Source: a virus | Direction: 5' to 3' (one strand) | Virus genome (UHGV): UHGV-0179801 | Length of the DNA: 43,982 nucleotides | Shown: in pieces, positions 392 through 42,035 of the stretch | How positions within the stretch are numbered: the first letter of the stretch is position 1 | Layout: each line of letters begins with the position of its first letter | Made by a program: the position numbers and the translations under genes | Notes under the pieces: generated by a model | Seen by the model: the letters and a program-made list of their open reading frames with translations, nothing else | The model's database searches: none | What the model was told of the DNA's origin: nothing

Positions 392-1005
392 TACGCGGCC
401 TCCAGTCTCGAAATAACCAGTAGCGCGGAAGGCGCGGCGCCCCATGCGGTTACGGTAGCGGCTTGCGGGTATACACCACCGAAGTTGCTTCCGGCGCTAT
501 CTCGCATAATCTGAACGGCAAACGTCTGGCCTGCGGTTGGGTTAATAACGACGCGAGACTCAATCGGGATTGTAATATCCGCGCTCACCAGTTTCGTGGC
601 GGCGGGCGAGCCGTACTGAGTACCGTTTACTAAAATACGTGATAGCAAGATTGATGTGCCACTTGCCCCTGTGCGACCCGCTTGTAACTTGATGCGAACG
701 GCGTAGTTACCCGCAGTGTTGAACGTAACCATACCCGCTGCATTAATCATTACCGGGTCAGATGCACTCCCCTGAGCGGAGCCGAAAGTTAACTGCAATG
801 CTGTGTCCGTCGCGGTTGGCGCTTGTATTACAGTGGACGCGGCGCGAAGAACTTCAACCTCTTTTACCCCAGGAGTGGCGTAAATAGGCGAGTCGGCCAT
901 CTGCGTCATTACCTCGCGTAACTTCGCGGGTGTGATAAGCCCGGTCGTGTTATCAGGGAGGTTCGCACCGATAAGGGTAAACATCTCTGTTTTAGTCTTC
1001 GCCAT
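391..1005 (-). CDS. virion-module protein of unknown function
   Basis: 204-aa ORF, ATG 1005, 2-nt gap to upstream gene; beta-rich C-terminal half; no motif I can name. Confidence 0.6.
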   Translation of the reverse strand: MAKTKTEMFTLIGANLPDNTTGLITPAKLREVMTQMADSPIYATPGVKEVEVLRAASTVIQAPTATDTALQLTFGSAQGSASDPVMINAAGMVTFNTAGNYAVRIKLQAGRTGASGTSILLSRILVNGTQYGSPAATKLVSADITIPIESRVVINPTAGQTFAVQIMRDSAGSNFGGVYPQAATVTAWGAAPSALLVISRLEAA

Positions 1006-1007
1006 TT

Positions 1008-1520
1008 TTAACCCCGGTACACGTTAAACGAGAAACCATTGTTAAGACCGCCGCACAGTAACGGGCGTAAGGCGTCGTCTGCGGCTGTAATAGCAGTTGT
1101 TGCTCCACTGCTGCCGTTGTTGAAGTAGGTAACGGTCACTGCACCCTCGACACGCTCGGTCTGCACGGAACGCCCATCAGTGTTAGCGCGAACATCAGTT
1201 CCAGCACCATATGTAGCGGCGGCGATTACCTGCGCAAGAATCACCTGTTTCGGGATGACATTGTTCGATACTGGGAAGCCATTCAACGTTACGCCGGCGC
1301 GTGGGTAAGCGAGAGACTGTTCAGCGGATACGCGACGACCGCACATCTGCGGTTCTGCAAGCCCGACATAAGTAGCACCGTTGCGCAGAGCTACTTCCGC
1401 GGCGGTATCGTCTTCTGGCAACTCCAGGCCATAATTAGCCGCTAACGCGCGGGCGTCAGCCAGACTAATGTAACTGTCGGCATTCGGTACGATTTCCCCT
1501 GTCTCCACGATTAGCGGCAT
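1008..1520 (-). CDS. head-tail adaptor/connector (gp6-like)
   Basis: 170 aa; N-terminus MPLIVETGEIVPNADSYISLADARALAANYG resembles gp6/DnaT_2-type adaptor N-termini; position after capsid genes. Confidence 0.55.
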   Translation of the reverse strand: MPLIVETGEIVPNADSYISLADARALAANYGLELPEDDTAAEVALRNGATYVGLAEPQMCGRRVSAEQSLAYPRAGVTLNGFPVSNNVIPKQVILAQVIAAATYGAGTDVRANTDGRSVQTERVEGAVTVTYFNNGSSGATTAITAADDALRPLLCGGLNNGFSFNVYRG

Positions 1521-1523
1521 AAA

Positions 1524-1703
1524 TTATTCCTCTGACTTACGGCGACGACGCTTAGTACCGCCACCGTTGTTGTGCGCTTCTTCGTTGTCCGGTTGTGTTG
1601 CAACCAGTTCTTCCGCTTCTACCGCACCGCGAACAGGCATCACCTGACCGTCAACAACATCAACGTGGGTGTACTTTTCGCGGATTACATAATTATCTGC
1701 CAT
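1524..1703 (-). CDS. small basic-tailed protein (59 aa)
   Basis: Hand-found ORF below track cutoff: ATG 1703 with AAGGAAAGG SD; MADNYVIREKY...GGGTKRRRRKSEE; TAA 1524. Confidence 0.5.
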   Translation of the reverse strand: MADNYVIREKYTHVDVVDGQVMPVRGAVEAEELVATQPDNEEAHNNGGGTKRRRRKSEE

Positions 1704-1739
1704 GACCTTTCCTTATTACGGCCCCGAAGGGCCGTTGTA

Positions 1740-2081
1740 TTAAGATACAGTTGCTACGGTGCTGCTGGAGATAATATTACCATACACATCGTGAACAACC
1801 ACTTTATACGTGCCTGAATCGGCGGTAGTGGTAGACGCTTTAGCATAGGTAGCTGCGGTAGCTCCGTCGATGGCGTTGTTGTTCTTATACCACTGGTAAG
1901 AATATGGCTCCAGACCGCCAGTTGCGACCACGGTCAGCGTCATAGTTTCACCTGCGGTTACCGAGGTAGTAGCGTTAAGCGGGGTAGAAAAAGACGCAGG
2001 TGAAATAGTCGCCATGTCAATCTTAGCACCTACGGTGTCCGCAGAGACGCCAGTGATGCGTCGTTTCAATACGTCTGCCAT
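1740..2081 (-). CDS. Ig-like domain protein (putative capsid decoration)
   Basis: 113 aa; I-set Ig pattern GETMTLTVVATGGLEPYSYQWYKNNNAI...DSGTYKVVVHD; directly downstream of major capsid gene. Confidence 0.6.
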   Translation of the reverse strand: MADVLKRRITGVSADTVGAKIDMATISPASFSTPLNATTSVTAGETMTLTVVATGGLEPYSYQWYKNNNAIDGATAATYAKASTTTADSGTYKVVVHDVYGNIISSSTVATVS

Positions 2082-2100
2082 TGGGGAATCCTCTTAGTAA

Positions 2101-2125
2101 ATGAAAAGAGGGACCGAAGTCCCTC
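2101..2125 (-). terminator. intrinsic terminator after major capsid gene
   Basis: Minus strand GAGGGAC-TTCG-GTCCCTC followed by TTTTCATTT, 18 nt after capsid stop. Confidence 0.55.
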
Positions 2126-2142
2126 TCGATTATAGCTTAACC

Positions 2143-3192
2143 TTAAGACCCGACACCAGTTACCAGGAAGGCAATCGGTACATGCTTACGTTCAACAACA
2201 CGGTTCCAGTTAGAGGCGTTCGCCAGGTCCTGCCAGGAAGCGGAGCGCGGGGTAGTCTCGGTGCCGTTGCCAGTGATTACTGCGCTGGTGAAGCTGTAGC
2301 CAAACGGATGCAGCAACCAGGTCTTACGGGTCCACAGGGTTTCAACGCCGCCGCCATTGCCGCGGGACTCTTCACGCTCATAGGCCAGCGGATTGGTTGG
2401 GTTGCCTTCACCATAACCGATAGCGCCGTTGCCGAAGATGATGGAGATGAACTTACGGCTAGGGCCAGTACCGACTACGGTCATGCTGTCGTCAACAATC
2501 ACGCGGTAGCCCTGGTAGGTGGCGAACAGGGTGTCGTTGTCAGCGTTTTTGATGAAGTCGATAAGCTGCTGCTTACGGGCCTGCGCGTATACGAAGCTGT
2601 GCATAGCGATAGTGCCCAGCACTTCACCACCGTTGCCCATCAGCGCGTCACCCATAGTCTGGGTAGCGTCGATGAACGCGCCTGCGTCGAAGCCCAGAGT
2701 AGAGGACACGTCGATTACCATGTCGTTCTGCTCGTGATATGCGTCGGTGGCGGCTACGTTGTCATTGTACAGACCGAGCGCGGTGGCGATCAGACGGCGT
2801 TGTGCCTGGCGCTGCCAGAAGTTATCCAGGCGGGATGCTACGGATTGCAGCGGGTTCTGGCTGGTCAGTTCTACCGTCAAATCCGCCTGACCAAAGCCTT
2901 CGTTCAGGTACGCAACGCGGGCCATCATCTCACCGGTCTGCACATTACGCGGGGTAGCGATGTCCTGGTATACGTCGTTCGAGTAGTTCGGCTCGATAGA
3001 GGTATCAATCGCTTTCCAGAAAGGAATATTAGCGATGTTGGACGGGCCGCGGGCAATCTCGGCAGCGTACGGAGTCGGAGTCAGAATACCGGACTGGAAG
3101 AACGCGGTTTTTTCTACCGGGTCCTCGGTCATATAAGATGCCAGGACCGGGATGTTGCCAGTTACGATATCGCCGATAGTGGTAATTGCCAT
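2143..3192 (-). CDS. major capsid protein
   Basis: 349 aa, follows scaffold gene with 2-nt gap, strong codon regularity (long in-phase antisense ORF), typical size/position for HK97-fold capsid protein. Confidence 0.8.
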   Translation of the reverse strand: MAITTIGDIVTGNIPVLASYMTEDPVEKTAFFQSGILTPTPYAAEIARGPSNIANIPFWKAIDTSIEPNYSNDVYQDIATPRNVQTGEMMARVAYLNEGFGQADLTVELTSQNPLQSVASRLDNFWQRQAQRRLIATALGLYNDNVAATDAYHEQNDMVIDVSSTLGFDAGAFIDATQTMGDALMGNGGEVLGTIAMHSFVYAQARKQQLIDFIKNADNDTLFATYQGYRVIVDDSMTVVGTGPSRKFISIIFGNGAIGYGEGNPTNPLAYEREESRGNGGGVETLWTRKTWLLHPFGYSFTSAVITGNGTETTPRSASWQDLANASNWNRVVERKHVPIAFLVTGVGS

Positions 3193-3194
3193 TA

Positions 3195-3896
3195 TTATTT
3201 CCTCAGGGCTTTAAGTTGCCGTTCAAATTCGGCAGGGTTCGATTTATACAGAGCTAAACGCTCCGCTTCACTCATGTCTTTAAACGCTGGTGCGGCCCCG
3301 CCGCCTTTGCTACCGGAAGCCCCGCCGCCGGAAGCTGCATTTGCTTTAATCAAATGCGAAAACGCTTTGTGTTCACGCAGATATTTGCGGAACTGTTCCG
3401 GGTCAGTCGTGATTACGTTACCGTCTGCGCTGACAAACTTAGTAACCACATCATCGCCTTCGAACTCAGTCTTAACGAACGGTGCAAGGATGTCCACTGC
3501 TTCCGGGGTGATAAAGTCACCTGCGAAAGAGCCTAACACCGCTTTACGTTCGCTACCGAGAATGCGCTCTGCCATTCTGGAGATGCGGCCATCTTTCTCG
3601 GCTAACACCGGGTCATACTGGCTACGAATCGTCTTTTCGAACTCGTCCATCTTACCAGCGGCTTTTAACGCCTCCTGGTGGGCACGCTGCCGTTCTTCTT
3701 CGGCCTCTTTTGCTTTACGAGCGGCTTCTTTCTTCTCCGCAAGTAATGCTTCCTGATTAGCCTTAAGCCCGGCAACTTCTTTCTCAATCAGCGCCTGAAC
3801 TTCTTCAGCGGTGAACATTTTCGGTGCGTCACCGCCGCCAGATTTATCTTCTGCTCCAGCTTCTTCCTGGAACGGATAACGTAAAAAACGATTCAT
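3195..3896 (-). CDS. scaffolding protein
   Basis: ORF 3195..3950 trimmed to ATG 3896; 233 aa, Ala/Glu/Lys-rich coiled coil (EALLAEKKEAARKAKEAEEERQRAHQEALKAAGK); immediately upstream of capsid gene. Confidence 0.7.
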   Translation of the reverse strand: MNRFLRYPFQEEAGAEDKSGGGDAPKMFTAEEVQALIEKEVAGLKANQEALLAEKKEAARKAKEAEEERQRAHQEALKAAGKMDEFEKTIRSQYDPVLAEKDGRISRMAERILGSERKAVLGSFAGDFITPEAVDILAPFVKTEFEGDDVVTKFVSADGNVITTDPEQFRKYLREHKAFSHLIKANAASGGGASGSKGGGAAPAFKDMSEAERLALYKSNPAEFERQLKALRK

Positions 3897-3978
3897 AGTC
3901 AGTATGTCCCCTGGACGTTGGAATCCGGGCCACCCGGATTTACATGTCAAGAATAAATTATTCCAACATGCAAGGCAA

Positions 3979-4242
3979 CTATTCCAGAATATTCCTCACA
4001 TAATCCTGCAACATGAACACTTTCAGTCTCAGTTGCCGTGCACATTCGGCATTCTGAACGTCGATAGCTAAATCCTCGTCCGCGTCGCTACTTGGCGGCG
4101 CCAGTTTGCACGGCGGCTGCATCATCGTCATATCCGGGGATGGAATTAGCGTTTGCGACGGCGCGGGACTTGAGCAGGACGCGAGCATCGTCGAAAGTGC
4201 ACACGCTGCGGCCAGGCGTTTTAATGTACTTAACGACTTCAC
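3979..4242 (-). CDS. o-spanin (Rz1-like outer-membrane lipoprotein)
   Basis: GTG 4242 with GAGGTG SD; signal + lipobox MLAS|C; Pro-rich; starts inside the i-spanin gene in another frame. Confidence 0.7.
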   Translation of the reverse strand: MKSLSTLKRLAAACALSTMLASCSSPAPSQTLIPSPDMTMMQPPCKLAPPSSDADEDLAIDVQNAECARQLRLKVFMLQDYVRNILE

Positions 4243-4474
4243 GGGTAATCACCTCTGATTTCGTCTTGCCTTCGTTGTCAGCGGCTGCGGCCTTTGATTC
4301 ATCCTGCTGCTGCCGTTGTGTTTTCTTTGCTAACTCGGTCTGTGCTTTCTGCTGTTGCTGCGAAACGAGATTCGCCCGGCCTTCGTTCCAGCCGCTGCGA
4401 TATTGGTAGATGCCGTGGGCGTAAGACAGGATGATGAAACATGCTCCTGCTACGACAGTTGCTTTAAGATTCAT
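4088..4474 (-). CDS. i-spanin (Rz-like)
   Basis: 128 aa; N-terminal TM (VVAGACFIILSYAHGIY), Gln/Lys-rich coiled coil; overlaps lipoprotein gene. Confidence 0.7.
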   Translation of the reverse strand: MNLKATVVAGACFIILSYAHGIYQYRSGWNEGRANLVSQQQQKAQTELAKKTQRQQQDESKAAAADNEGKTKSEVITREVVKYIKTPGRSVCTFDDARVLLKSRAVANANSIPGYDDDAAAVQTGAAK

Positions 4475-4498
4475 GTTTCTCCTTTCTCGATAAGTAAA

Positions 4499-4518
4499 GC
4501 CCCGCCATAAAGCGGGGC
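4499..4518 (-). terminator. hairpin (attenuator/terminator) 25 nt upstream of spanin start
   Basis: Minus strand GCCCCGC-TTTATG-GCGGGGC then CTTTACTTAT; imperfect U-tract. Confidence 0.4.
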
Positions 4519-4698
4519 GCTAGTCCTTATCATTTAAACATAGAAACGGCGTAATCTCAGTAAACCAGTTACTTTTTACACAAGCAATAGATTATGGCCC
4601 TTCCGAACGCGTCAGCGTAACTACACTCAGGACTTACGTCCCGCTCCGTTACCTGCCCGCGCCGCGGTCGCTTGTTCATACTTCACAAGCTCAGGTGG

Positions 4699-4727
4699 AG
4701 CTTAGCACATTTTTAGTGAAAAGTCAA
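4699..4727 (-). promoter_or_regulatory. candidate leftward promoter TTGACT-N17-TAAGCT
   Basis: -35 at 4727..4722, -10 at 4704..4699 (minus strand); abuts 16-bp palindrome; about 175-195 nt upstream of hairpin 4499..4518. Confidence 0.3.
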
Positions 4728-4741
4728 CTATTCGAATAGTT
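4726..4741. repeat. perfect 16-bp palindrome AACTATTCGAATAGTT
   Basis: Read directly; half-sites CTATT/AATAG are those of the promoter dyad but in swapped order; centre about -41.5 relative to the TSS predicted from 4699..4727. Confidence 0.8.
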
Positions 4742-4793
4742 TATTCCAAGATTTACAATTCGGTGGAATAACTGGGATACCTAACCAAATAGT

Positions 4794-4822
4794 TTGCACA
4801 CACCAATATAATAGGGTACTAT
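4794..4822 (+). promoter_or_regulatory. type-A promoter/operator cassette (TTGCAC-N17-TACTAT)
   Basis: TTGCACACACCAATATAATAGGGTACTAT; near-identical copies at 6601, 40223 and 18086(-); contains dyad AATAG-N4-CTATT. Confidence 0.6.
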
Positions 4823-4850
4823 TCATTACATCGAAACGAGGAGATGAAAA

Positions 4851-5024
4851 ATGTTCAAAGAAAAAGACATAATGCACGAAAACGGCAAATACTGGGTTCT
4901 AAATGATAAAGGAGTGTACTGCGTAATGATTTCCGGGTTTACCCACGCTAAAGCTGATAGTGCATACGCTAGTTTAGATTTAGCGATAGCCCGCTGTGAT
5001 TATCTGGCGAGTAGAGACGCATAA
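4851..5024 (+). CDS. small protein (57 aa), rightward island 1
   Basis: Hand-found ORF: AGGAGA SD, ATG 4851, MFKEKDIMHENGKYWVLNDKGVYCVMISGFTHAKADSAYASLDLAIARCDYLASRDA, TAA 5024; own promoter and terminator; AT-rich. Confidence 0.55.
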   Translation: MFKEKDIMHENGKYWVLNDKGVYCVMISGFTHAKADSAYASLDLAIARCDYLASRDA

Positions 5025-5027
5025 ACT

Positions 5028-5050
5028 AAGGCCCCGTAATGGGGCCTTTT
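5028..5050. terminator. bidirectional GC-hairpin terminator
   Basis: AAGGCCCC-GTAAT-GGGGCCTT + TTTT; between convergent genes 4851..5024(+) and 5052..5510(-). Confidence 0.7.
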
Positions 5051-5051
5051 A

Positions 5052-5510
5052 TCAATCTGGCTTAGTGACCTTCGCCGCCTTGCTTACCACCTCAACTCCA
5101 TCGGTATCAGTAACTTTAACGAAGTATTCGCCAGCTGCGTTAACCGACAGAGACAAAGCCTGTTCTGGTGCGTTAACCACTTCCTTACCGTCCTTGTACC
5201 AGGTCAGAGTATACGGCGCTTTACCCGCTTTAACTTCGACAGTGATAGTTGCGCTGCCGTCTGCCAGTTCGGCGTCCTGCGGTTGCACAGAGAAATACAC
5301 ATCGCCAGCATCAGCCAGATACGGAATCTCATAAAGCATACCCGCCGCCGGCAGCGCAATACCGGTTTTATCTGCAAACGGCATATCGTCTACGGGCGTA
5401 CCGAGTACACTTTCATCTTCAATAAATACCACGTTCTCGCCGGAGCCAGACACGCGGGCGTACTGGACTACGCGACGCGCGGGTACATCAGTTACTTTGA
5501 AAAAGCCCAT
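5052..5510 (-). CDS. Ig-like domain-containing virion protein
   Basis: 152 aa; C-terminal I-set Ig pattern ATITVEVKAGKAPYTLTWYKDGKEV...AGEYFVKVTD. Confidence 0.55.
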   Translation of the reverse strand: MGFFKVTDVPARRVVQYARVSGSGENVVFIEDESVLGTPVDDMPFADKTGIALPAAGMLYEIPYLADAGDVYFSVQPQDAELADGSATITVEVKAGKAPYTLTWYKDGKEVVNAPEQALSLSVNAAGEYFVKVTDTDGVEVVSKAAKVTKPD

Positions 5511-5512
5511 CG

Positions 5513-6556
5513 TTATTCCCCTTTCAGATAATCAGCAACACGTTTATCGAGTTCCGCCATCTGCTTAAGCGTCAGCGGATTCCCGAAACCATCTACAGAT
5601 ATTACGCGAAACTCTTCCGGTGATATACCGCTGTTACGGAAAATCTTACCGCGTGTCGGCCCGAGTGCTTCATCCTGAAACCATGCCGGTTGTTGTTTCA
5701 GGAACTCGTAATAGGTTGTGTCCGCGCTTACCTGAGTTCCTCCGTCTGCACCCTTAGCCGCACGTTTTGCGCCTTTATCGAGGAAGTCGAACTCCGAGCT
5801 AATTACCGGAGCCGTGCACGACCGGCAGTTCGGATGGGCGGGGGGCATCGGCCCTTTACCAATTTCCCACGTCATCCCGTCTCTGGCTCTGCAAATCGTA
5901 CTTGTACGGCTGTCGAGGGTGGATACCCACTCGTACTTCTCGATGATGTCGTCGTTCTGACGGTACGTCTCGTTACGTGCTTCGTTGGACACGTGGGACA
6001 GCGCGGTGCGTATTACAGTAGCCGCATTGCGCTCAGAGACATCGGCCAGGCCACCCGCGCCAACAACATTCTTAACAATCTGCCGTGTGGTTTGGCCTTG
6101 TACAAATCCCATCTTAACGCCCGTTACCAGGCGCGCGACCTCCGCTTCGCCCCAGCCATCCATCAGCTTGGTGAAATCGACAGGCTTGTCACTTAGTGAC
6201 AGAGGTTGAAACTCGGCAGCGGCCCACACCTGCTCAGCGGTAGGAGTAATAAATTCTGCGTTAACATTGGTCGTCAGTGTTTTTACGTTCCACTCAGCCT
6301 CATATGCCGCCAGTTCCTTAAGGTCTTCTGTCAGCTTTGTTTGCCAGTCACCTGTAAGGCCTGCCAGTGCTTCTTCGAGGTCGCGTAACAGTTTATTCAG
6401 TCTGGCGGTGCTGCGACCGTCGTCGCCGAATAACAGCACCTGCCGTTTTATTTCGTCACGCATCTCCTGAATGAACGGTGTGAGGTCTTTCACCTCGCCG
6501 GATGCGGTGCGTTGCAGCCATATCTGGTGGCTGATTAAGGATGTAAGTAAGCTCAT
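5513..6556 (-). CDS. head morphogenesis protein (SPP1 gp7 / Mu F-like)
   Basis: ORF 5513..6613 trimmed to ATG 6556 (AGGAGG SD); 347 aa; HPNCRSC motif typical of MuF family; downstream of portal. Confidence 0.75.
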   Translation of the reverse strand: MSLLTSLISHQIWLQRTASGEVKDLTPFIQEMRDEIKRQVLLFGDDGRSTARLNKLLRDLEEALAGLTGDWQTKLTEDLKELAAYEAEWNVKTLTTNVNAEFITPTAEQVWAAAEFQPLSLSDKPVDFTKLMDGWGEAEVARLVTGVKMGFVQGQTTRQIVKNVVGAGGLADVSERNAATVIRTALSHVSNEARNETYRQNDDIIEKYEWVSTLDSRTSTICRARDGMTWEIGKGPMPPAHPNCRSCTAPVISSEFDFLDKGAKRAAKGADGGTQVSADTTYYEFLKQQPAWFQDEALGPTRGKIFRNSGISPEEFRVISVDGFGNPLTLKQMAELDKRVADYLKGE

Positions 6557-6600
6557 ATGCCCTCCTGTAGTATCGACAGTGTAACGCATAAAAATAATAT

Positions 6601-6629
6601 TTGCAGACACCAATATAATAGGGTACTAT
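6601..6629 (+). promoter_or_regulatory. type-A promoter/operator cassette (TTGCAG-N17-TACTAT)
   Basis: TTGCAGACACCAATATAATAGGGTACTAT followed by the same leader ...CGAAACGAGGAGATGA.AAATG as copy 4794. Confidence 0.6.
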
Positions 6630-6656
6630 TCAGTTATCGAAACGAGGAGATGAGAA

Positions 6657-7178
6657 ATGGTTACTACAGTAATTACTTTCCCTGCGTATGTAGGGGCGAA
6701 AATCTGCAGGGCGAAAAATGATGTGCGCTATTATTTGAACGCTTTTTACATAGACCCTGAAGGATTGATAGTTTCTACGGATGGTCACAGATTGTTCTGC
6801 GACAACGTGAAGACAAACGTCGAAACTGGAGTTCTAATAGACATCAAAGGGAGGGAGCCTTCTAAATTTAACTACGCGGAGGTAGACCACGACAACGGTA
6901 GTGTTTCTTTCTATGACGATAGTAGTGCGCTTGTATGTACACTTCCTATTGAAGTTGTAGACGGGAGATTTCCTTACTGGAGACGTGTGGCCGGCATTAC
7001 GCCGGGTTCAGTCGATAGCATAGGGTTCTCTCTGCGCTATTTGGCGGACGCGTACAAGATTTCTAAGGCATACAAAAATGAAATTGCCCGTTTCGATTTC
7101 CAGGACCAAACAAACGGATGCAAAATATCATTTTCAAACACTGCATTTATGGTGCTAATGCCAGCGCGATTTAAATAA
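6657..7178 (+). CDS. truncated DnaN (beta sliding clamp)-like protein, rightward island 2
   Basis: 173 aa; blocks DVRYYLN, TDGHRL, VDGRFPYWRRV, IGFSLRY, LMPARF match E. coli DnaN domain II and C-terminal half of domain III (from memory of DnaN). Confidence 0.8.
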   Translation: MVTTVITFPAYVGAKICRAKNDVRYYLNAFYIDPEGLIVSTDGHRLFCDNVKTNVETGVLIDIKGREPSKFNYAEVDHDNGSVSFYDDSSALVCTLPIEVVDGRFPYWRRVAGITPGSVDSIGFSLRYLADAYKISKAYKNEIARFDFQDQTNGCKISFSNTAFMVLMPARFK

Positions 7179-7182
7179 AACT

Positions 7183-7206
7183 AAGGCCCCGAAAGGGGCC
7201 TTTTCT
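7183..7206. terminator. bidirectional GC-hairpin terminator
   Basis: AAGGCCCC-GAAA-GGGGCCTT + TTTC; between 6657..7178(+) and portal stop 7207(-). Confidence 0.7.
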
Positions 7207-8679
7207 TTACTCCTGTTGCTGCTGCGCCGACTGCGGAATCTCTCCTGCTACCTGAGTAACAGCACCCAATGGCAACGGTGCATCTTCGATAGCGTTCTGA
7301 ATATCCTCGTCGGTCCAGTCGGTCACACCTGCCTTACGCAACGCCGCATAGTAAGCGGTAGCCGGTAGCAGGCCCGCGTTAATGTCCGCCATCCACTGAG
7401 CGCGGTCCTGGGCGGTCATCGGTTGCAGGAAGAACTCCATATTCAGTTTGAACTCAATCTCTGTGCCTTCACGCAGCCCAAGCATCGCCGCTACCCAGCG
7501 CAACGCATCTGTATACGCCATGCTTACATTACGTGCGATTGTCGCCATGACGGACGTATCCGCACCACGTTGCAGGCGGGCTGATTCGGCGGTGATTTGC
7601 TGCGTCGGGGTGATAAGCTGTGCGCCAATCTGAATTGCCTGATTCTCTTTATCCAGCATGTTCTGTTTGGCGAGGTTGTTCTCTCCCGCCTGAACCAGAA
7701 ACGCATTGCCGCCGTAGCCGATGTTATGGCCTGAACGAGACCCCATGCGCACGCCGTGTGGGTTAGCTTCTTTCCACTGTTCCATGCTCATGTTCTCACC
7801 TGGCGCAATGAACAGAGTGGGCTGGCCTACAACGAAGCTGGACTCCTCATTGTCCGCGCTGTTGCGGAAATGTCCGATATTAAGCTCAGCCAACGGCAGC
7901 AAAGGTGCATCATCAATGGTTGCGTCGTTGTTGCTCGCCCCAATGAACGTGAACGGTATTTTACCGCGCAGCTGTTCTCCGAGTTCCGGGAAGATTTCGA
8001 TTACGTCACCCTGAGCACCACCTTCGGCGTCGAAGCGGTAAATGCGCTGGCGGTAGCGCCCGTCAATCAAATCGAGAACGCGGTATTGTTCGCCGAATTT
8101 TGTTTCGAACTCCGCGCCCGGTTCTGAGTATTCCCACACCTCACGCAGCACGACCGTTGTCACACGGTTAACAGAACCGATGCGTGTCAGTCGCCAGTTG
8201 ATGATGTTCTCTGCGGTATAGAATGCGATTACCGGGTTTAATAACCCCGCGTTCTGCTCTGCCGCCGTTGCCGCGGCTGTCTCTGGGGCGTCCACCAGCA
8301 ACCCGCCGCGGCCAACCGAGTCAATCTCCATCAGCGTGTCCTGCGCGTGCTGCCACAACCCGACACCAGAACCGTCGGCATTACGTAACAGGTACTCCAG
8401 TTCAGGCGGGATAATTTGCTCGGGGTCTTTACGCATCACTGACCCCACCATCCCGGCCAGAGTACGTTTGGTGAAGTTGTAGCAGATAGCGCCGTTCTCG
8501 TATTCTTCCTGGCGCTGCGCAGCGTAGGTAGGCTCCGGCTCGTTCTTCCCGACGTTGCGAAGATAGCGGATAAGGTCGCCTTCCAGCGCGTGGCGTACCT
8601 TCTGCCATTTATCGAAGTGATGCAGCCATTCCCGGTGTTTTGTTTTAACACCCTGATTCTGACCGTTCATAGTTAACAT
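7207..8679 (-). CDS. portal protein
   Basis: 490 aa, AAGAGGA SD before ATG 8679; immediately downstream of terminase large subunit; size typical. Confidence 0.8.
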   Translation of the reverse strand: MLTMNGQNQGVKTKHREWLHHFDKWQKVRHALEGDLIRYLRNVGKNEPEPTYAAQRQEEYENGAICYNFTKRTLAGMVGSVMRKDPEQIIPPELEYLLRNADGSGVGLWQHAQDTLMEIDSVGRGGLLVDAPETAAATAAEQNAGLLNPVIAFYTAENIINWRLTRIGSVNRVTTVVLREVWEYSEPGAEFETKFGEQYRVLDLIDGRYRQRIYRFDAEGGAQGDVIEIFPELGEQLRGKIPFTFIGASNNDATIDDAPLLPLAELNIGHFRNSADNEESSFVVGQPTLFIAPGENMSMEQWKEANPHGVRMGSRSGHNIGYGGNAFLVQAGENNLAKQNMLDKENQAIQIGAQLITPTQQITAESARLQRGADTSVMATIARNVSMAYTDALRWVAAMLGLREGTEIEFKLNMEFFLQPMTAQDRAQWMADINAGLLPATAYYAALRKAGVTDWTDEDIQNAIEDAPLPLGAVTQVAGEIPQSAQQQQE

Positions 8680-8691
8680 TGAATAATCCTC

Positions 8692-9963
8692 TTAAAGTGC
8701 GAAAGTCACCGGGACGTTAATAACTGGTTTGCGAATCGGCATTTCATACGCAATTGGGTATGTGGTTCCGTCATTCTGATGGTCCACGCCGCCAGATTTA
8801 TCCGGTTCGCCGTTCTTGTCGTAAGCCTGTTGCTCAAGGCATCGCGCCGTAACCGGACAAGCCTGCTCGTTAATCATGACCATACCAGATTCAAGCGCCT
8901 TATTCATCGCCGATACTCGGTCTTTAACCGGTGGGTTTGCCGATTTTGCACGCACTTCGAAACCGGCCTGCTGTAACTGGGCGATGTCTGATGTACTGGC
9001 GTTGTTGCTTTTACGGTTTTTGCCGCTGGCGTCAGGATACATAACAATATAGTGGCCTTTACTTTTCCATCGCTCTGTTATCGCCCGCACCACATCTGGC
9101 GTGTCGAACATATCAACCAACTCGGCAACAGCGTGCCAGACTTTACCACGTTGCACGTAAACTGTGCTCGCCATGTGACCTACGTTAAAATCCTGCCCAA
9201 TATACAGAGTCTCGCCAGGCTTGATTGTTTCGCGACTGCTGTTTTTCCTGCGGTCGTAAGCGTAATAGACCGTTCCGGCTGTGAGGTTTACGAACTCGCC
9301 GTTGATGTAGGCATCAATCAACTGCCCCGGGTAGGTGTCGCGCAATGACTGCACATAATCTTCTGGCAGGAACGGGTTAGACAGGGTGGATGCCTGAATC
9401 ATCTCGTAACCGGGATTCTTTTTGACCACCCAGCGGTCATGTACGAAACGGAATCCCTCCGGCGTAGTGAACACGGAAACGGTATTAGCCGGTTTAGGTG
9501 TAATAGGTTTATATGTCCGCGGCAACTGGCGGTTACGGGCGATGACTTTGTTCCACGCGTGCTCGGCGTGCTCCATGTTAAGGGTGTCCAACTCGTCGAT
9601 TTTTGCGCGAAACGATTCGTAGCCAACGATTCGTGCTGGATTATCGAGAGTACGCAGGACAAAATCCCCGAATTGTCCGGATGATGTATAGATTATGTTG
9701 TCGGACTTATTGTATTTGTACCTCACGCCCCAGTCGGTGAGTTTTTCTTCCATACGAGGCGCAAGGATGAGGCGCACCAGGTCGTATGTCGGCTCGTACA
9801 TGGCGATGATAGAATCGCTACCACCTTCCATGCTGTCGAGTAGTGCAGAGTTGCACATAACTTCGGATTTGCCAGTGCCAAATCCCGCCACGAATGCCGG
9901 AAACTTGCAGTGCATTCCGAGAAACGCGCCTTGCGGTTCTGTCGCCGTGATATTAACGTTCAC
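8692..9963 (-). CDS. terL: terminase large subunit
   Basis: 423 aa; GTG 9963 with AAGGTGG SD; Walker A-like GFGTGKS; overlaps terS stop. Confidence 0.85.
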   Translation of the reverse strand: MNVNITATEPQGAFLGMHCKFPAFVAGFGTGKSEVMCNSALLDSMEGGSDSIIAMYEPTYDLVRLILAPRMEEKLTDWGVRYKYNKSDNIIYTSSGQFGDFVLRTLDNPARIVGYESFRAKIDELDTLNMEHAEHAWNKVIARNRQLPRTYKPITPKPANTVSVFTTPEGFRFVHDRWVVKKNPGYEMIQASTLSNPFLPEDYVQSLRDTYPGQLIDAYINGEFVNLTAGTVYYAYDRRKNSSRETIKPGETLYIGQDFNVGHMASTVYVQRGKVWHAVAELVDMFDTPDVVRAITERWKSKGHYIVMYPDASGKNRKSNNASTSDIAQLQQAGFEVRAKSANPPVKDRVSAMNKALESGMVMINEQACPVTARCLEQQAYDKNGEPDKSGGVDHQNDGTTYPIAYEMPIRKPVINVPVTFAL

Positions 9964-10462
9964 CGGACACCACCTTAATTGTTACTTCACTGATTGGCTC
10001 GTCGCGTACTTCTTCGGGGGCAACAGTTTTATTCAGCCCCAGTTTCGCGGCAGCAAACGTAGCGGAGATACCGGCTGCGCCCGTCTCAGTGAAGTAGGCC
10101 TCTTCCAGCGCCTGTGCGGTTTCATAGGCTTCTGCAAATGCGGGAATCTCGCGCAGCCACAGTTTAATAATCGGGATAGTGACGCCGATGTGTAAGGCAA
10201 AGCGAGCCAGTGATGGGGGTTTATCCTGAATCAGCGGGCGCTCGTCACCCTTGGACGTAGGCACAAGTTCCCACGACGTGCGGTCGAAGAACTCGATTAA
10301 TTCGTCGCAATAGTCCGGGTCCCACAACGCGGCGGAATTACGGGATGATTGATAAAGGCTCTGTTTACCGTGCGGCCGCCTGCGGCGACGGTTTGCGCTA
10401 ACAGCTTCTTCATGTGCAGCTTGCACCACCTCTGGCGATGGCTGCTTGAGTTTCAGCTTCAT
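9953..10462 (-). CDS. terS: terminase small subunit (putative)
   Basis: ORF 9953..10501 trimmed to ATG 10462 (AAGGGGA SD); 169 aa; immediately upstream of and overlapping terL. Confidence 0.6.
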   Translation of the reverse strand: MKLKLKQPSPEVVQAAHEEAVSANRRRRRPHGKQSLYQSSRNSAALWDPDYCDELIEFFDRTSWELVPTSKGDERPLIQDKPPSLARFALHIGVTIPIIKLWLREIPAFAEAYETAQALEEAYFTETGAAGISATFAAAKLGLNKTVAPEEVRDEPISEVTIKVVSGER

Positions 10463-10527
10463 AGAATCCCCTTGCATATGCGTCTGACCATCAGAGCGCA
10501 CCAGACGCGCCCTACGCGTCTAAAGGG

Positions 10528-10557
10528 ATTATATAAGGGGATTGGGCGGGATGTACA
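10528..10557 (-). promoter_or_regulatory. candidate promoter TGTACA-N18-TATAAT upstream of terS
   Basis: Consensus TATAAT on minus strand (10533..10528); 7-bp hairpin AGACGCG/CGCGTCT (10503..10521) at predicted 5' end. Confidence 0.3.
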
Positions 10558-10585
10558 GAAAAGCACTCCGTAGAGTGCTTGTTGG

Positions 10586-10726
10586 TCAGGAGATGGCCTT
10601 AAATACGAAGGCTACTGTAACACACGCGGCAAAGAACGTAACGCAGTTCAACAACCATTGCACGACCCAATATCGGTGTGGTTTAGCTGCAATCCAGTCA
10701 CTTATTTTATCCAGAATATCTTTCAT
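10586..10726 (-). CDS. small membrane protein (46 aa)
   Basis: Hand-found: ATG 10726, MKDILDKISDWIAAKPHRYWVVQWLLNCVTFFAACVTVAFVFKAIS, TGA 10586; TATAAT 14 nt upstream of SD. Confidence 0.45.
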   Translation of the reverse strand: MKDILDKISDWIAAKPHRYWVVQWLLNCVTFFAACVTVAFVFKAIS

Positions 10727-10769
10727 CTCTCGCTCTCCAATCAATTATACAGGCCGTATCATGGTTATT

Positions 10770-11000
10770 TTACAGCTCTACAGACGCTAGACGACTGGCT
10801 GCGGCTTTAACCGTATCTTTAAGGTTATCATACGCGGAAGTAAAAGACGTATGCGCTCCTTTTGAGGCAACTGTAGCGCCGCCGTTAAAGTACGCTTTTG
10901 CTCTCCAGCTACCATTTACCTTATCAATAAGGATGTAGTGGCTACCTTCTTCCGTTACCGTAACTGTGTTTTCATCGATTACTTCAAATTTAGTATCCAT
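10770..11000 (-). CDS. hypothetical protein (76 aa)
   Basis: ORF track; ATG 11000; preceded by type-B promoter 11046..11074. Confidence 0.6.
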   Translation of the reverse strand: MDTKFEVIDENTVTVTEEGSHYILIDKVNGSWRAKAYFNGGATVASKGAHTSFTSAYDNLKDTVKAAASRLASVEL

Positions 11001-11045
11001 ATTTGCTCTCTCTCTGTTCGTTAAATTAGTGTATGAAGCGTTTTA

Positions 11046-11074
11046 ACTATACTAGCAGGCTATTCACGCGTCAA
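11046..11074 (-). promoter_or_regulatory. type-B promoter/operator (TTGACG-N17-TATAGT)
   Basis: Minus strand TTGACGCGTGAATAGCCTGCTAGTATAGT. Confidence 0.55.
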
Positions 11075-11089
11075 CAACTTCTGTCTGTA

Positions 11090-11191
11090 TCAGTTATATA
11101 GGCCGTGGCGTGGTGCTCTTTTACCGTCGCCACCGTAATGGTCGTTAGCTACGGCTATAACCCAGGCGTTTTGGATGATTAGCATTCTCAT
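11090..11191 (-). CDS. possible 33-aa peptide
   Basis: ATGA-coupled to upstream gene; MRMLIIQNAWVIAVANDHYGGDGKRAPRHGLYN; no other support. Confidence 0.3.
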   Translation of the reverse strand: MRMLIIQNAWVIAVANDHYGGDGKRAPRHGLYN

Positions 11192-11367
11192 TTCAAGAAT
11201 CTCAACAGGGCATCGGCAATACCTGATGTTACCAGTCCGAAAAACATAGGCCACCAGATATATCCGGGCAGATTGGTAAATGTTTCTGGCTTAGTACAGA
11301 AAGCCAGTAAAAACGCGAACCAAAACACTATATAACTAATGCTGCTGAGTAATTCTAAAATGCTCAT
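11188..11367 (-). CDS. small membrane protein (59 aa)
   Basis: Hand-found, ATGA-coupled to 11364..11600; MSILELLSSISYIVFWFAFLLAFC...FFGLVTSGIADALLRFLK (2 TM). Confidence 0.5.
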   Translation of the reverse strand: MSILELLSSISYIVFWFAFLLAFCTKPETFTNLPGYIWWPMFFGLVTSGIADALLRFLK

Positions 11368-11600
11368 TCCCCACCCTCCCCTTTAGCAATACGTTGCTCT
11401 GTTTTAGTGATACCGCGGCGCGTGAATAACACCGGGCTTGTCTTAACGTGCGTCATCAGACGGTTGTTATAAATTACGTGGCGCTCGCAATCAACGTCTT
11501 TGCTGTACTTTGCAATCGTCATTTCGTTGATGCCGGTTTGTCGACATGTCTCCGCCATTGTGCCGAATTCTTTGATCAGGTTCGGAATGCTGGTAATCAA
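11364..11600 (-). CDS. HTH DNA-binding protein (78 aa)
   Basis: TTG 11600 with AAGGAGAG SD, TTGA coupling; HTH-like GTMAETCRQTGINEMTIAKY. Confidence 0.55.
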   Translation of the reverse strand: MITSIPNLIKEFGTMAETCRQTGINEMTIAKYSKDVDCERHVIYNNRLMTHVKTSPVLFTRRGITKTEQRIAKGEGGE

Positions 11601-16879: not shown

Positions 16880-16908
16880 ATAGTAACCTATTCTATCCCA
16901 GTGAGCAA
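16880..16908 (-). promoter_or_regulatory. type-A promoter variant (TTGCTC-N17-TACTAT)
   Basis: Minus strand TTGCTCACTGGGATAGAATAGGTTACTATTCA. Confidence 0.5.
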
Positions 16909-18023: not shown

Positions 18024-18057
18024 CTTTAAATTCCTTATGTCTCGTTGCTATAAGTGA

Positions 18058-18086
18058 ATAGTATCCTATTATATTGGTGTGTGCAA
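18058..18086 (-). promoter_or_regulatory. type-A promoter/operator cassette, leftward early
   Basis: Minus strand TTGCACACACCAATATAATAGGATACTAT; plus strand also reads TTGCTA-N16-TATTAT (18045..18072). Confidence 0.6.
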
Positions 18087-18158
18087 GAGAGTAGTTACGC
18101 TGCCGTTGTGATTCTTCAGGTAGGGTTGTGCCTTTATTCTTATTACTTGGTAACTAAA

Positions 18159-21555: not shown

Positions 21556-21584
21556 AAAAAAAATAAAGGGGCGTTAAGCCCCTT
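21553..21584 (-). terminator. intrinsic terminator of the Cro-like gene
   Basis: Minus strand AAGGGGC-TTAAC-GCCCCTT followed by TTTATTTTTTTTTT; 5' arm overlaps the last codons. Confidence 0.75.
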
Positions 21585-21789
21585 CACCAAACGCCAGCCA
21601 CTTTGCGTCTACTTGCAGCACTTCCGCCAGCTTGAACAGCGTCGCTGGACGTACGTCCTGAGTTACCCCAAGTGCCAGCTGGTTAATCGCGCCCTGGGAA
21701 ACACCGGCCAGGACAGCCAGACGGCGCTGGGAGATGCCGAGTTCTTTGCGGCGTTGTTCTACACGGATGCCTAGTTCAGATGGTTGCAT
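21574..21789 (-). CDS. XRE/Cro-CI-type HTH transcriptional regulator (71 aa)
   Basis: RRKELGISQRRLAVLAGVSQGAINQLALG is a classic HTH_3 pattern; only minus-strand gene within the rightward arm. Confidence 0.8.
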   Translation of the reverse strand: MQPSELGIRVEQRRKELGISQRRLAVLAGVSQGAINQLALGVTQDVRPATLFKLAEVLQVDAKWLAFGEGA

Positions 21790-30766: not shown

Positions 30767-30792
30767 AAGGCCCCAAACGGGGCCTTAGTTTT
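30767..30792. terminator. bidirectional terminator where the two arms converge
   Basis: AAGGCCCC-AAAC-GGGGCCTT + AGTTTT; A-run on the other side. Confidence 0.75.
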
Positions 30793-40115: not shown

Positions 40116-40222
40116 TCTTTGATCCTTTGGTTAAGAGGTTACAGGTTAAGGGAAATGCGCCAGACGGGAACCACCCGCTTTTCGTGTGCGACACTAGGCG
40201 CAAACTTATTCTAGCACACTAC

Positions 40223-40251
40223 TTGCACACCCCAATATAATAGGGTACTAT
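40223..40251 (+). promoter_or_regulatory. type-A promoter/operator cassette (TTGCAC-N17-TACTAT)
   Basis: TTGCACACCCCAATATAATAGGGTACTAT; opposite strand offers TTGGTG-N16-TATTAT towards chaperone gene. Confidence 0.6.
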
Positions 40252-40281
40252 TCACTTACACCAACAATGGAGGAGTTTAAA

Positions 40282-40473
40282 ATGTCAAGTTTACCAGTTT
40301 CCTTAATTCTGTTTGCACTACTCGCTTATTTTGCGCCTTTCCTGGTTGCATATTTCCGCAACCATAAAGCGAAGTTAGCGATATTCATGGCTAACCTGTT
40401 TCTTGGCTGGATTCTGCTGCCGTGGGTATTTATTTTAATCTGGGCTTGCAACTCGAATGTCAAAGAGAAGTGA
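40282..40473 (+). CDS. superinfection-immunity-like membrane protein (Imm_superinfect type)
   Basis: ORF 40267 trimmed to ATG 40282 (GGAGG SD); 2 TM; YFAPFLVAYFRNHKAKLAIFMANLFLGWILLPW resembles the Imm family motif (memory). Confidence 0.6.
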   Translation: MSSLPVSLILFALLAYFAPFLVAYFRNHKAKLAIFMANLFLGWILLPWVFILIWACNSNVKEK

Positions 40474-40510
40474 GCTAGTATAGGACAAATCCTAAGCACG
40501 AGGAATAAGC

Positions 40511-41641
40511 ATGGCCAGGAAGAAAATAACCGACGAACAGTTGCAGGAAGAATTGAACGCCGGTATGAAGAATATCGACATCGCTCGTAAATACGGCATC
40601 TCAGACCGCGTTATTCGCATCCGTAAAGCGAAGCTGGCAAAGAAAGGCGTAGGTCATGGGCGCGACGTTAGCCACCTTGTGCCAGATGGCTACAAGATTA
40701 AAGGAACGTCGTCACTTGTCGATGAGTTCGGCAACACTAAATTGCAATGGGTTAAGACCGACACCGATGCTGAACGTCAGGTTGAACTGATGAAAGCCGT
40801 GGTTGAAGGTATGAAGTCAGAGATTACCCCGGTTGCGCCTGTTAAAGCGACTCGAGCCAAACGTGACGATAAACTGCTCAATCTTTACACTGTGTCTGAT
40901 TTCCATCTCGGTATGCTTGCATGGGCCGACGAGAGTGGCGACGACTGGGACATGAAGATTGCAGAAGACCTGTTCTCTCGCTGGTTCGACGCAGCGTTTC
41001 AGAAAGCGCCGGACGCAGGAACGGGCGTTATTAACCTGCTTGGTGACCTTGCGCACTTCGATAGTCTGGATGCCGTTACGCCGGCAAGCGGTCATGTTCT
41101 TGACGCAGACACGCGCTATCAGAAACTGGTCCGCTACATGATTCGTATGGTCCGCCGTGTCGTTGATATGGCCCTTGTTAAGCATAAAAATGTTCGCTTG
41201 CTTATTGTGCAAGGGAACCACGACGAGAGTGGCATGATTTGGCTGGCTGAGATGTTCAGTACGCTATACGACAACGAGCCGCGTGTGTTCGTCGATACGT
41301 CACCGGATGTTTACAAGATGGCGCGACACGGCAAAACAACGTTGTTCTTTCACCATGGACATAAAGCACGCTTCGACGCTATCGAGCCGGTTATGATTGC
41401 CAAGTTCCGCAAAGCGTTCGGCGAGAGTGTTTACAGCTACGCTCACGTAGGGCACCTGCACCATCAGAAGATTGTAGAAAGCCGTAACATGATTGTTGAG
41501 CAGCACCGCACTTTAGCGGCTAAAGATGCCTACGCCTCCCGCGGCGGATGGATGTCAGGCCGTAGTGCAAACGTAATTACTTATAGCGCCGAATATGGCG
41601 AGGTCGCGCGTTTAACTATTTCACCGGAGATGCTGGGATGA
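40511..41641 (+). CDS. HTH + calcineurin-like metallophosphoesterase
   Basis: 376 aa; N-terminal HTH NIDIARKYGISDRVIRIR; DFHLG, GDLAHFD, GNHD, HHGH, GHLHH metallophosphatase motifs. Confidence 0.75.
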   Translation: MARKKITDEQLQEELNAGMKNIDIARKYGISDRVIRIRKAKLAKKGVGHGRDVSHLVPDGYKIKGTSSLVDEFGNTKLQWVKTDTDAERQVELMKAVVEGMKSEITPVAPVKATRAKRDDKLLNLYTVSDFHLGMLAWADESGDDWDMKIAEDLFSRWFDAAFQKAPDAGTGVINLLGDLAHFDSLDAVTPASGHVLDADTRYQKLVRYMIRMVRRVVDMALVKHKNVRLLIVQGNHDESGMIWLAEMFSTLYDNEPRVFVDTSPDVYKMARHGKTTLFFHHGHKARFDAIEPVMIAKFRKAFGESVYSYAHVGHLHHQKIVESRNMIVEQHRTLAAKDAYASRGGWMSGRSANVITYSAEYGEVARLTISPEMLG

Positions 41642-41868
41642 CTTCAAAATACAACCGCACAATGACAAACACTCACGGTAGCACTATGACAGTAGATGTT
41701 TACGATGTGCTACGTGCCTTCGACATCCGCGACCCGGCGTTGCAACACGCATTGAAGAAACTATTGTGCATGGGCTTGCGGGGGCACAAGGACACCGGAA
41801 CAGACTTAGCGGAAGCAATTGAAAGTCTGGAGAAGTTACGGGAATATCGAAGCAATATTGACGAATAA
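41638..41868 (+). CDS. DUF3310-like small protein (76 aa)
   Basis: ATGA-coupled; VDVYDVLRAF...HALKKLLCMGLRGHKDTGTDLAEAIESLEKL resembles DUF3310 core (memory). Confidence 0.45.
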   Translation: MTSKYNRTMTNTHGSTMTVDVYDVLRAFDIRDPALQHALKKLLCMGLRGHKDTGTDLAEAIESLEKLREYRSNIDE

Positions 41869-41882
41869 CTACTAGGTATTTT

Positions 41883-42005
41883 ATGAAACTAATTATTAAC
41901 TTCTTTAAAGCCTTAACAGGTAACGATTTTGAGATCGACGGAGGTTGGCTAGTGTATGACCCTACTTTTGATACTTGGTTGTGGCATAAAGAGAAACCTC
42001 GATGA
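41883..42005 (+). CDS. possible 40-aa protein
   Basis: Hand-found ORF MKLIINFFKALTGNDFEIDGGWLVYDPTFDTWLWHKEKPR; no clear SD. Confidence 0.3.
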   Translation: MKLIINFFKALTGNDFEIDGGWLVYDPTFDTWLWHKEKPR

Positions 42006-42009: not shown

Positions 42010-42035
42010 AAGGCCCCTTTCGGGGCCTTAGTTTT
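42010..42035. terminator. bidirectional GC-hairpin terminator
   Basis: AAGGCCCC-TTTC-GGGGCCTT + AGTTTT; on minus strand followed by TTTTT right after tail-tube stop. Confidence 0.75.

Follow-up and report, generated by a model that had tools for sequence, protein, structure and literature searches.

We analyzed the virus genome UHGV-0179801, a stretch of 43,982 nucleotides (below, the window), in which three rightward gene islands lie among the leftward structural genes. These islands are probably antisense accessory-gene slots of a virulent Kagunavirus: to judge from their sequences, all three share one kind of early promoter and a two-way terminator, and their cargo would be exchanged by recombination. 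The window is a complete or nearly complete Kagunavirus (Guernseyvirinae) genome, that of an E. coli siphovirus, and over positions 4500-7500 it shares about 89-90% identity with, for example, phages vB_EcoS_fFiEco03 and SHAK7693. Members of the genus have been described as lytic (PMC7203180, PMC9825357), and no integrase or lysogeny module is annotated in the relatives Shashou and Jersey.

Leftward genes occupy positions 32-18023 and 30796-43954, and rightward replication genes occupy 18491-30628. Read as a circle, the leftward arm runs from small early genes through lysis, terS, terL, portal, MuF and an Ig-like gene to the spanins, scaffold, capsid, neck, tube, chaperones, tape measure, tip and tailspike. 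An earlier note, made from the sequence alone, had placed three plus-strand islands among the structural genes, and this arrangement was borne out together with the neighbours named there, Ig-like/spanin (island 1), portal/MuF (island 2) and tube/tail chaperone (island 3). The portal (DUF4055), MuF and Ig-like genes were identified with Pfam, and the tube and tail assembly chaperone genes with PHROGs; the spanin had no Pfam match and takes its name solely from the annotation of relatives (Shashou, Jersey). The elements of the islands, and the copies of their signals elsewhere in the window, are as follows.

4793..4825, plus strand: type-A cassette 1, with TTGCAC at 4794-4799, a 17-nt spacer and TACTAT at 4817-4822
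4810-4823: palindrome AATAGGGTACTATT, overlapping the -10 element of cassette 1
4851..5024, plus strand: island 1 cargo, a 57-aa protein (phrog_20712), found in relatives in the Ig/spanin or the portal/MuF slot
5028..5048, unstranded: hairpin T1, between island 1 and the Ig-like gene, with a folding energy near -15 kcal/mol in either orientation
6600..6632, plus strand: type-A cassette 2, followed by the conserved 5' untranslated region (UTR) cgaaacgaGGAGa
6657..7178, plus strand: island 2 cargo, a 173-aa truncated beta-clamp-like protein
7183..7202, unstranded: hairpin T2 at the portal/island 2 junction, with T-runs in both directions
40222..40254, plus strand: type-A cassette 3, matching the 33-mer of cassettes 1 and 2 with 2 mismatches
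40267..42005, plus strand: island 3 cargo, four open reading frames (ORFs)
40267-40473, plus strand: Imm-type superinfection immunity protein
40511-41641, plus strand: 376-aa protein with a helix-turn-helix (HTH) segment and a metallophosphatase domain
41638-41868, plus strand: 76-aa protein
41883-42005, plus strand: 40-aa protein
42010..42029, unstranded: hairpin T3, directly after the tail tube gene
18055..18087, minus strand: fourth type-A cassette, predicted to drive the first gene (17805-18023) of the leftward small early block
16880..16908, minus strand: diverged type-A promoter TTGCTC-N17-TACTAT with the palindrome, within the leftward early block
30767..30786, unstranded: fourth hairpin copy, at the convergent junction of the rightward replication genes and the tailspike gene

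The type-A cassette opens each of the three islands, as the earlier note had it: the 33-mer TTTGCASACACCAATATAATAGGGTACTATTCA is found at all of them, without mismatches at islands 1 and 2 and with two at island 3. A fourth copy, absent from that note, is the minus-strand cassette at 18055-18087 (two mismatches), and no match is expected by chance (0 in 100 shuffles). The cassette reads as a sigma-70-type promoter, TTGCAC-N17-TACTAT, with its -10 element inside the 14-bp palindrome AATAG-N4-CTATT. The more general layout TTGCNC-N17-TACTAT, again with the palindrome over the -10, covers five copies, those of the three islands and those at 18087 and 16908 on the minus strand, and each has on the same strand, about 20 nt on, the conserved 5' UTR with its ribosome-binding site (cgaaacgaGGAGa) and then an ATG.

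At the other end, each island is closed by the hairpin AAGGCCCC-N4/5-GGGGCCTT, also as claimed. The pattern AAGGCCCC-N{3,6}-GGGGCCTT occurs at 5028, 7183, 42010 and 30767, with no occurrence expected by chance. The predicted folding energies range from -15 to -20 kcal/mol in both orientations, and a GC-rich, stable stem is followed on its 3' side by a U-run on both strands, which is the sequence pattern of a bidirectional terminator. The T-runs on both strands are real and are kept in relatives, whose occupied slots have on average 5-6 T within the 9 nt past the stem in both directions. At T1 they read TTTTATC rightward and TTAGTTTAT leftward; at T3 the stronger one, TTTTTCTC, faces the late direction, and the position of this hairpin is the same in nearly all relatives. 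The hairpin module is itself oriented (ATAAAACT-stem-TTTTCT), with the stronger T-run directed toward the cargo at islands 1 and 2; at island 3 and at 30767 it points to the late genes instead. The Shashou GenBank record already annotates both-strand terminators after the tube and tailspike genes.

The argument for exchangeable slots comes from relatives. We retrieved from IMG/VR 75 loci around MuF and 41 around the tube gene; slots 1 and 2 were counted in the 39 loci whose MuF has at least 90% identity, and island 3 was compared in 36 Kagunavirus loci. Among the close relatives the portal/MuF slot is empty in 25 loci, with 69 nt between the genes, and occupied in 13 by 12 cargo families; the Ig/spanin slot is empty in 9 (about 342 nt) and occupied in 25 by 10 families. 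Four families are common to both slots, namely those of the clamp fragment and the 57-aa protein together with a methyltransferase and a 106-aa protein. In particular, the clamp fragment, which sits between portal and MuF in the window, lies in the Ig/spanin slot in 9 of 11 other loci and in the portal/MuF slot in two. Every occupied slot of the Kagunavirus type has exactly one antisense type-A cassette and one hairpin. When the same cargo is compared in different slots, homology starts at the hairpin, 2-5 nt past the stop codon of the late gene (all four comparisons), and it ends at the outer edge of the cassette in the two cargoes that were aligned end to end. Since homology spans the stretch from hairpin to cassette, the exchangeable unit appears to be hairpin, cargo and cassette together. 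The 69 nt of the empty portal/MuF sites hold the hairpin and a degenerate palindrome side by side, and in more distant relatives portal and MuF overlap by 4 nt and lack the hairpin.

Island 3 follows a different pattern. It is present in all 36 Kagunavirus loci, and its 376-aa gene was found in 35 of them; its first gene is a small membrane protein gene from any of three families, and there is variation at the 3' end too, with the 76-aa protein, a kinase/phosphatase pair and an HNH endonuclease as examples. In more distant relatives the island is reduced to one small gene and the hairpin, and in one distant relative (L046) the 376-aa gene occupies the Ig/spanin slot; within Kagunavirus, the variable cargo of island 3 was not found to be shared with slots 1 and 2. 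The Jersey record (L120) follows the same design, with antisense genes in these positions. It also holds a fourth antisense slot, between terL and portal (1845-3224), with a homing endonuclease; the same junction measures 12 nt in the window (8680-8691).

Thus the islands are self-contained, with promoter, cargo and hairpin, and their cargo is accessory, the slots of relatives being empty or filled with unrelated genes. Island 3, however, is not a recent acquisition, given its nearly universal 376-aa gene. Because relatives swap the contents freely, we interpret the islands as docking slots for accessory genes. No description of hypervariable slots or of cargo movement between slots was found in the literature searched, and both appear to be new.

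The palindrome would link the islands to early gene control. Within the window it has 14 sites at no more than one mismatch, against 1.3 expected; about ten of them stand at promoter-like positions, and two flank a Cro-like gene. A second promoter class, type B, is the near-consensus TTGACA-N17/18-TATAKT with the palindrome in its spacer and with the opposite sense relative to the motif. Its members, which precede replication genes as well as the small genes upstream of terS, and the candidate regulator are the following.

11046-11074, minus strand: type B promoter
21854-21883, plus strand: type B promoter
24422-24450, plus strand: type B promoter
28018-28046, plus strand: type B promoter
21574..21789, minus strand: 71-aa Cro/XRE-type HTH_3 protein, candidate palindrome binder

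The divergent control region of the 71-aa HTH gene contains two palindromes, at 21820-21833 and 21865-21878; the gene's own promoter, TGgTACTAT, has the palindrome over its -10, and the homologue of this gene is named 'cro' in the Shashou GenBank record. The palindrome therefore overlaps core promoter elements repeatedly, including those of the candidate regulator itself, and the 71-aa protein, encoded between two copies, is likely a global regulator of early promoters. The window encodes a second small HTH protein, a 65-aa, excisionase-like HTH_17 protein (18491-18688, plus strand). In Salmonella phage Jersey, which belongs to a different genus, the palindrome is found at four promoters, including that of its island 3, and one of these has the type-A layout with a perfect TTGACA -35 element, which fixes the direction in which type A is read. 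Its retention in Jersey marks the palindrome as an old, conserved regulatory element rather than a recent duplication.

Two early genes on the minus strand have the same 24-nt translation-initiation region, AAACGAGAGGAGAGACAGAAGATG (16415-16438 and 16846-16869); the plus-strand site 21894-21914 was noted along with them. The 24-nt region closely resembles the island 5' UTRs cgaaacgaGGAGa, suggesting a common module of UTR and ribosome-binding site that travels with the promoters.

Taken as accessory-gene slots, the islands would work in the following way. Each would be transcribed from a host sigma-70 promoter of the early type, type A, a class that presumably also drives the first small early genes; the palindrome would act in addition from the spacer of the replication-gene promoters and in the control region of the Cro-like gene. 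As both promoter class and palindrome are common to early genes, the islands are most likely switched on early and then lowered by a phage regulator. Their transcripts would end at the GC-rich hairpin shared with the upstream late gene; in the rightward direction it would block antisense run-on into the portal, Ig and tube genes, and in the leftward direction it would attenuate late transcription. The cassette and the hairpin would also serve as portable homology arms, where recombination could delete or replace cargo or move it between slots and between phages. Late transcription would be supplied by conserved sigma-70 promoters ahead of terS, ahead of the structured leader (about 200 nt) that precedes the spanins, and ahead of the tail chaperones, and the MuF and Ig-like genes of this genome would most likely rely on read-through of the 7183 hairpin.

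Several points weigh against this interpretation. The recombination step is deduced from breakpoints alone, and many of the IMG/VR contigs come from one metagenome, so that the counts are not those of independent samples. Type A is mediocre by consensus in this genome, with three of six bases at the -35 and four of six at the -10, and the palindrome could be bound by the HTH_17 protein (18491-18688) instead of the Cro-like one. If the late RNA polymerase became terminator-resistant at the leader, the late-direction T-runs might matter little. Finally, a Kagunavirus RNA-seq study puts the Imm gene in the 'late' class (PMC12645636), although its sampling at 5-120 min with at most 8.9% phage reads is too coarse for starts, ends and read-through.

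The organization of the late genes bears most directly on the alternatives. The relevant elements, all read in the late direction, are listed below.

10528..10579, minus strand: terminator-like hairpin (10579-10562), then promoter TGTACA-N18-TATAAT (10557-10528), upstream of terS
4699..4727, minus strand: promoter TTGACT-N17-TGcTAAGCT, after island 1
4487..4698, minus strand: GC-rich leader RNA of about 200 nt, from the 4727..4699 promoter
2106..2127, minus strand: terminator-like hairpin within the 61-nt intergenic gap downstream of the major capsid gene
40208..40235, minus strand: promoter TTGGGG-N16-TGcTAGAAT, upstream of the tail chaperones, with its -35 inside cassette 3

In the chaperone promoter (40235..40208), TG and TAGAAT are the same in 36 of 36 Kagunavirus loci but are separated by a variable base, a pattern characteristic of an extended -10 element; Jersey has TGtTATTCT at the matching position. 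Similarly, the 4727..4699 promoter is present in every Kagunavirus-type sequence examined, with TG and hexamer invariant and the intervening base variable. Its -35 is overlapped by the palindrome AACTATTCGAATAGTT (4726-4741). The Jersey-type counterpart reads TGnTACGCT, mostly with TAGACT or TAGATT as -35, and the extended -10 of more distant relatives is TGATAACCT, the -35 being less well kept. In this genome, the 45 nt that separate cassette 2 from the start codon of MuF showed no credible promoter; the candidates GATACT, TATGCG and TTTTAT were rejected, as they lack a -35 or would start within the ribosome-binding site. In some alleles of the Jersey type, TGaTATGAT or TATAAT stands before MuF. 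The proposed restart of late transcription after the islands thus holds for the junctions of islands 1 and 3, where promoters do follow, although with sequences other than those proposed, but not for MuF.

As to termination, the empty portal/MuF sites retain the hairpin, AGCCCCGAAAGGGGCT, with its late-direction T-run, TTTCTTAT; T counts past the stem are 6/9 in the late direction and 3.5/9 in the antisense direction, where the run has decayed. Retention of the one and loss of the other suggest that late-direction termination or attenuation is selected. Empty Ig/spanin sites keep the hairpin followed by TTTTTAG, and the hairpin after the tube gene is nearly universal among relatives. The idea that the hairpins stop late transcription is consistent with these T-runs, which persist without cargo, but 'insulated' is too strong a word. 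Between the capsid-gap hairpin at 2127-2106 and the dozen late genes that follow there is no space for a promoter, and neither this hairpin nor the leader terminator at 4518-4499 has a downstream promoter, which implies substantial read-through, the terminators being leaky or overridden. The late cluster is plausibly a chain of units split by leaky terminators, a layout that would belong to the phage backbone; the islands occupy its junctions and do not, as far as these comparisons go, create them.

The leader beside island 1 ends at a strong terminator hairpin (4518-4499) with a T-run, directly before the spanin ribosome-binding site. Its predicted fold has an energy of -72.1 kcal/mol (z-score -2.0), and five predicted pairs show compensatory double changes in a within-genus alignment of 29 Kagunavirus sequences; a cross-genus MAFFT alignment was too poor for a consensus structure and was set aside. 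A small ORF annotated here in Shashou has a reading frame that is not conserved in Jersey-type sequences. Rfam, searched at gathering thresholds over the whole window and at E-values up to 10 over 4440-4800, yielded no credible family for any of these elements, cassette, hairpins and leader alike. The leader could be an attenuator, an antitermination leader or a small RNA.

Two further structures were noted near the tail chaperones. A leader of about 90 nt, GCGCCTAGTGTCGCACACGAAAAGCGGGTGGTTCCCGTCTGGCGC (40116-40207, minus strand), extends from the 40235..40208 promoter to the chaperone start codon; it is conserved in Jersey (L120 16914-17089), with changes that look compensatory, and it may be a second structured late leader. 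A very stable hairpin, GGGGTGGGC...GCCCGCCCC, followed by TTTTTAT, lies at 39540-39563 (minus strand) within the second tail-chaperone frame (39334-39666), downstream of the expected G/GT frameshift region.

A different reading is that the late genes form one or two long, terminator-resistant transcripts, for example through modification of RNA polymerase at the leader; the hairpins would then count solely as terminators for the antisense islands, the late T-runs being by-products. The succession of a promoter, a structured leader and a strong terminator before the first gene does resemble lambda PR'-6S-tR', several late-direction hairpins lack a downstream promoter, and in some relatives the late tails at portal/MuF are poor, down to 2/9 T. 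We nevertheless regard this reading as unlikely. No Q-like antiterminator or sigma factor was seen among the approximately 20 early and middle ORFs (not every ORF) scanned with Pfam and PHROGs, and the Shashou and Jersey annotations contain no Q-family protein. The genes from terS through Ig lie upstream of the leader, which hence cannot protect their transcription; the empty portal/MuF sites keep precisely the late T-run and lose the antisense one; and the conserved promoter before the chaperones would be redundant.

The earlier note itself had proposed that the bidirectional hairpins divide the late genes into four insulated units, and that the palindromic cassette also fires leftward through TTGnnn-N16/17-TATTAT/TATATT to restart each of them, setting stoichiometry or timing. 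In its favour, relatives conserve the T-runs flanking every hairpin, TATTAT and TATATT do not vary inside the cassette, the type B promoters use the same CTATTATAKT as their -10, and in a promoter scan TCGATA-17-TATATT (6640..6612, minus strand) and TTGCTA-16-TATTAT (18045..18072, plus strand) score 9/12. Scores of 9/12, however, occur at the chance level (22 seen, 18.8 expected), and no leftward -35 is conserved: its position falls in the 5' UTR of the cargo and changes with it. The form with TTGnnn and TATTAT fits cassette 3 and the 18055 copy; cassettes 1 and 2 read TTCGAT or TCGATA at the -35 instead. The restart promoters that are conserved are other sequences. The partition likewise does not depend on the islands, as empty slots retain both terminators and restart promoters; insulation is incomplete at the capsid and leader terminators; and in distant relatives portal and MuF overlap. 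On this evidence we consider the proposal improbable.

A further possibility, more speculative and to our minds doubtful, combines the recombination dock with a two-way switch in which the bound Cro-like regulator shuts the cargo promoter and could activate or unmask a divergent late promoter. The regulator would silence the cargo promoter because its site overlaps the -10, and at island 3 it would be bound at about -45 of the TTGGGG-N16-TGnTAGAAT promoter, a geometry likened to that of lambda CI at OR2 activating PRM. If so, any gene placed between cassette and hairpin would gain early, self-limiting expression with no collision with late transcription, and the leader at 4698-4487 would be a new cis element governing read-through into the capsid and tail genes.

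That the islands are autonomous selfish elements inserting themselves, such as free-standing homing-endonuclease genes or repeats resembling miniature inverted-repeat transposable elements (MITEs), is very improbable. HNH or homing endonucleases do occupy the same slots in some relatives, but the cargo in the window includes no nuclease, transposase or integrase, there are no target-site duplications, and unrelated cargoes have identical flanks, with a single cassette and hairpin per occupied slot. Hardly credible, finally, is the view, taken for phage fBC-Eco01 and its seven reverse-complement copies with the PHIRE consensus tgAATAGTa-ccTATTat-T (PMC9825357), that the motif is the promoter of a phage-encoded RNA polymerase; it was dropped, since the annotations of Shashou and Jersey include no gene for such a polymerase and the palindrome lies within canonical sigma-70 pairs (17-18 nt spacing), in both orientations relative to transcription.

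The 173-aa protein of island 2 shows weak but specific similarity to beta-clamp residues ~144-366 and retains only parts of the clamp, its matches in E. coli DnaN lying near residues 144-179, 235-260 and 312-365. It could act as a mimic or a poison of the clamp, and the PHROGs label 'RusA-like' for its family looks like a misannotation. In the 376-aa protein of island 3, an N-terminal HTH-like segment (a weak GerE/LuxR match) is joined to a calcineurin-type metallophosphatase. The islands had been expected to be AT-richer than their surroundings, and this is true of islands 1 and 2, with GC contents of 0.41 and 0.43 against 0.53 in the flanking head genes and a rank in the lowest 3-4% of equal-sized windows, but not of island 3 (0.48, 17th percentile), whose 376-aa gene has 0.51. 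Small early genes elsewhere in the genome are equally AT-rich (0.40-0.45).

Two observations concern the window at large. No tRNAs were found in it, and a 551-aa ATG-initiated ORF runs antisense to the capsid and scaffold genes (2101-3756, plus strand), probably as a by-product of codon bias and not as a gene.

If the islands are indeed accessory-gene slots, a small virulent siphovirus would possess three 'plug-in' sites within its most conserved gene cluster, where shared signals both regulate and exchange the cargo. The slots gather candidates for host takeover and anti-defence, including the beta-clamp fragment, superinfection immunity proteins, methyltransferases and kinases. As Kagunavirus phages are candidates for therapy and synthetic biology, the slots could offer natural, tolerated insertion points already provided with expression signals.

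Several known systems resemble parts of this arrangement. In lambda, the PR' promoter, the 6S RNA and the tR' terminator form a late leader subject to Q antitermination. The region 4727-4487 is alike in having a promoter and a short terminated leader followed by lysis and structural genes; it differs in its place in the middle of the late cluster, and it gives no sign of a promoter-proximal pause or of antitermination. Bacterial bidirectional intrinsic terminators consist of a GC-rich hairpin between an A-tract and a T-tract at convergent transcription units. The island hairpins likewise present a stem and then a U-run on each strand between convergent units, but here one predicted hairpin sequence serves at four junctions and moves along with the mobile cargo.

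Morons of lambdoid phages are said, after Juhala, Hendrix and colleagues, to be extra genes between late genes with their own promoter and factor-independent terminator. The islands agree with this description in lying between late genes that are adjacent in relatives (portal/MuF empty in 25 of 38, Ig/spanin in 9 of 34) and in a base composition unlike that of the flanks at islands 1 and 2, island 3 being marginal; as sequence, putative promoter and terminator signals of their own are present and conserved. They depart from it in that the phage is virulent, with no expression from a prophage state, in their antisense orientation to the late genes, and in sharing one near-identical, operator-bearing promoter and hairpin, with the same cargo moving between slots.

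The promoter-early stem-loop (PeSL) cassettes of T4-type phages combine a sigma-70-like early promoter with a terminator hairpin in multiple near-identical copies, which flank small genes, mostly of unknown function, in hypervariable regions and in which the ends of indels and replacements between close relatives fall (PMC2839356, PMC4122927). Here, too, promoter and stem-loop are repeated (four to five type-A promoters and four hairpins), and the endpoints of cross-slot homology fall in the hairpin and the cassette. The Guernseyvirinae siphovirus belongs to an unrelated lineage and its motif is unrelated, so that the analogy is one of mechanism and not of membership. Its promoter and hairpin bracket antisense cargo in the structural module, whereas the T4-type composites stand head-to-tail between co-oriented early genes; in addition, the island hairpin would be a bidirectional terminator shared with a late gene, and the island promoter contains a palindromic putative operator. 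PeSL-type shuffling would thereby reach an unrelated phage lineage and an antisense, structural-module context, and the islands are best described, from their signals and breakpoints, as a variant of moron and PeSL-like accessory-gene slots.

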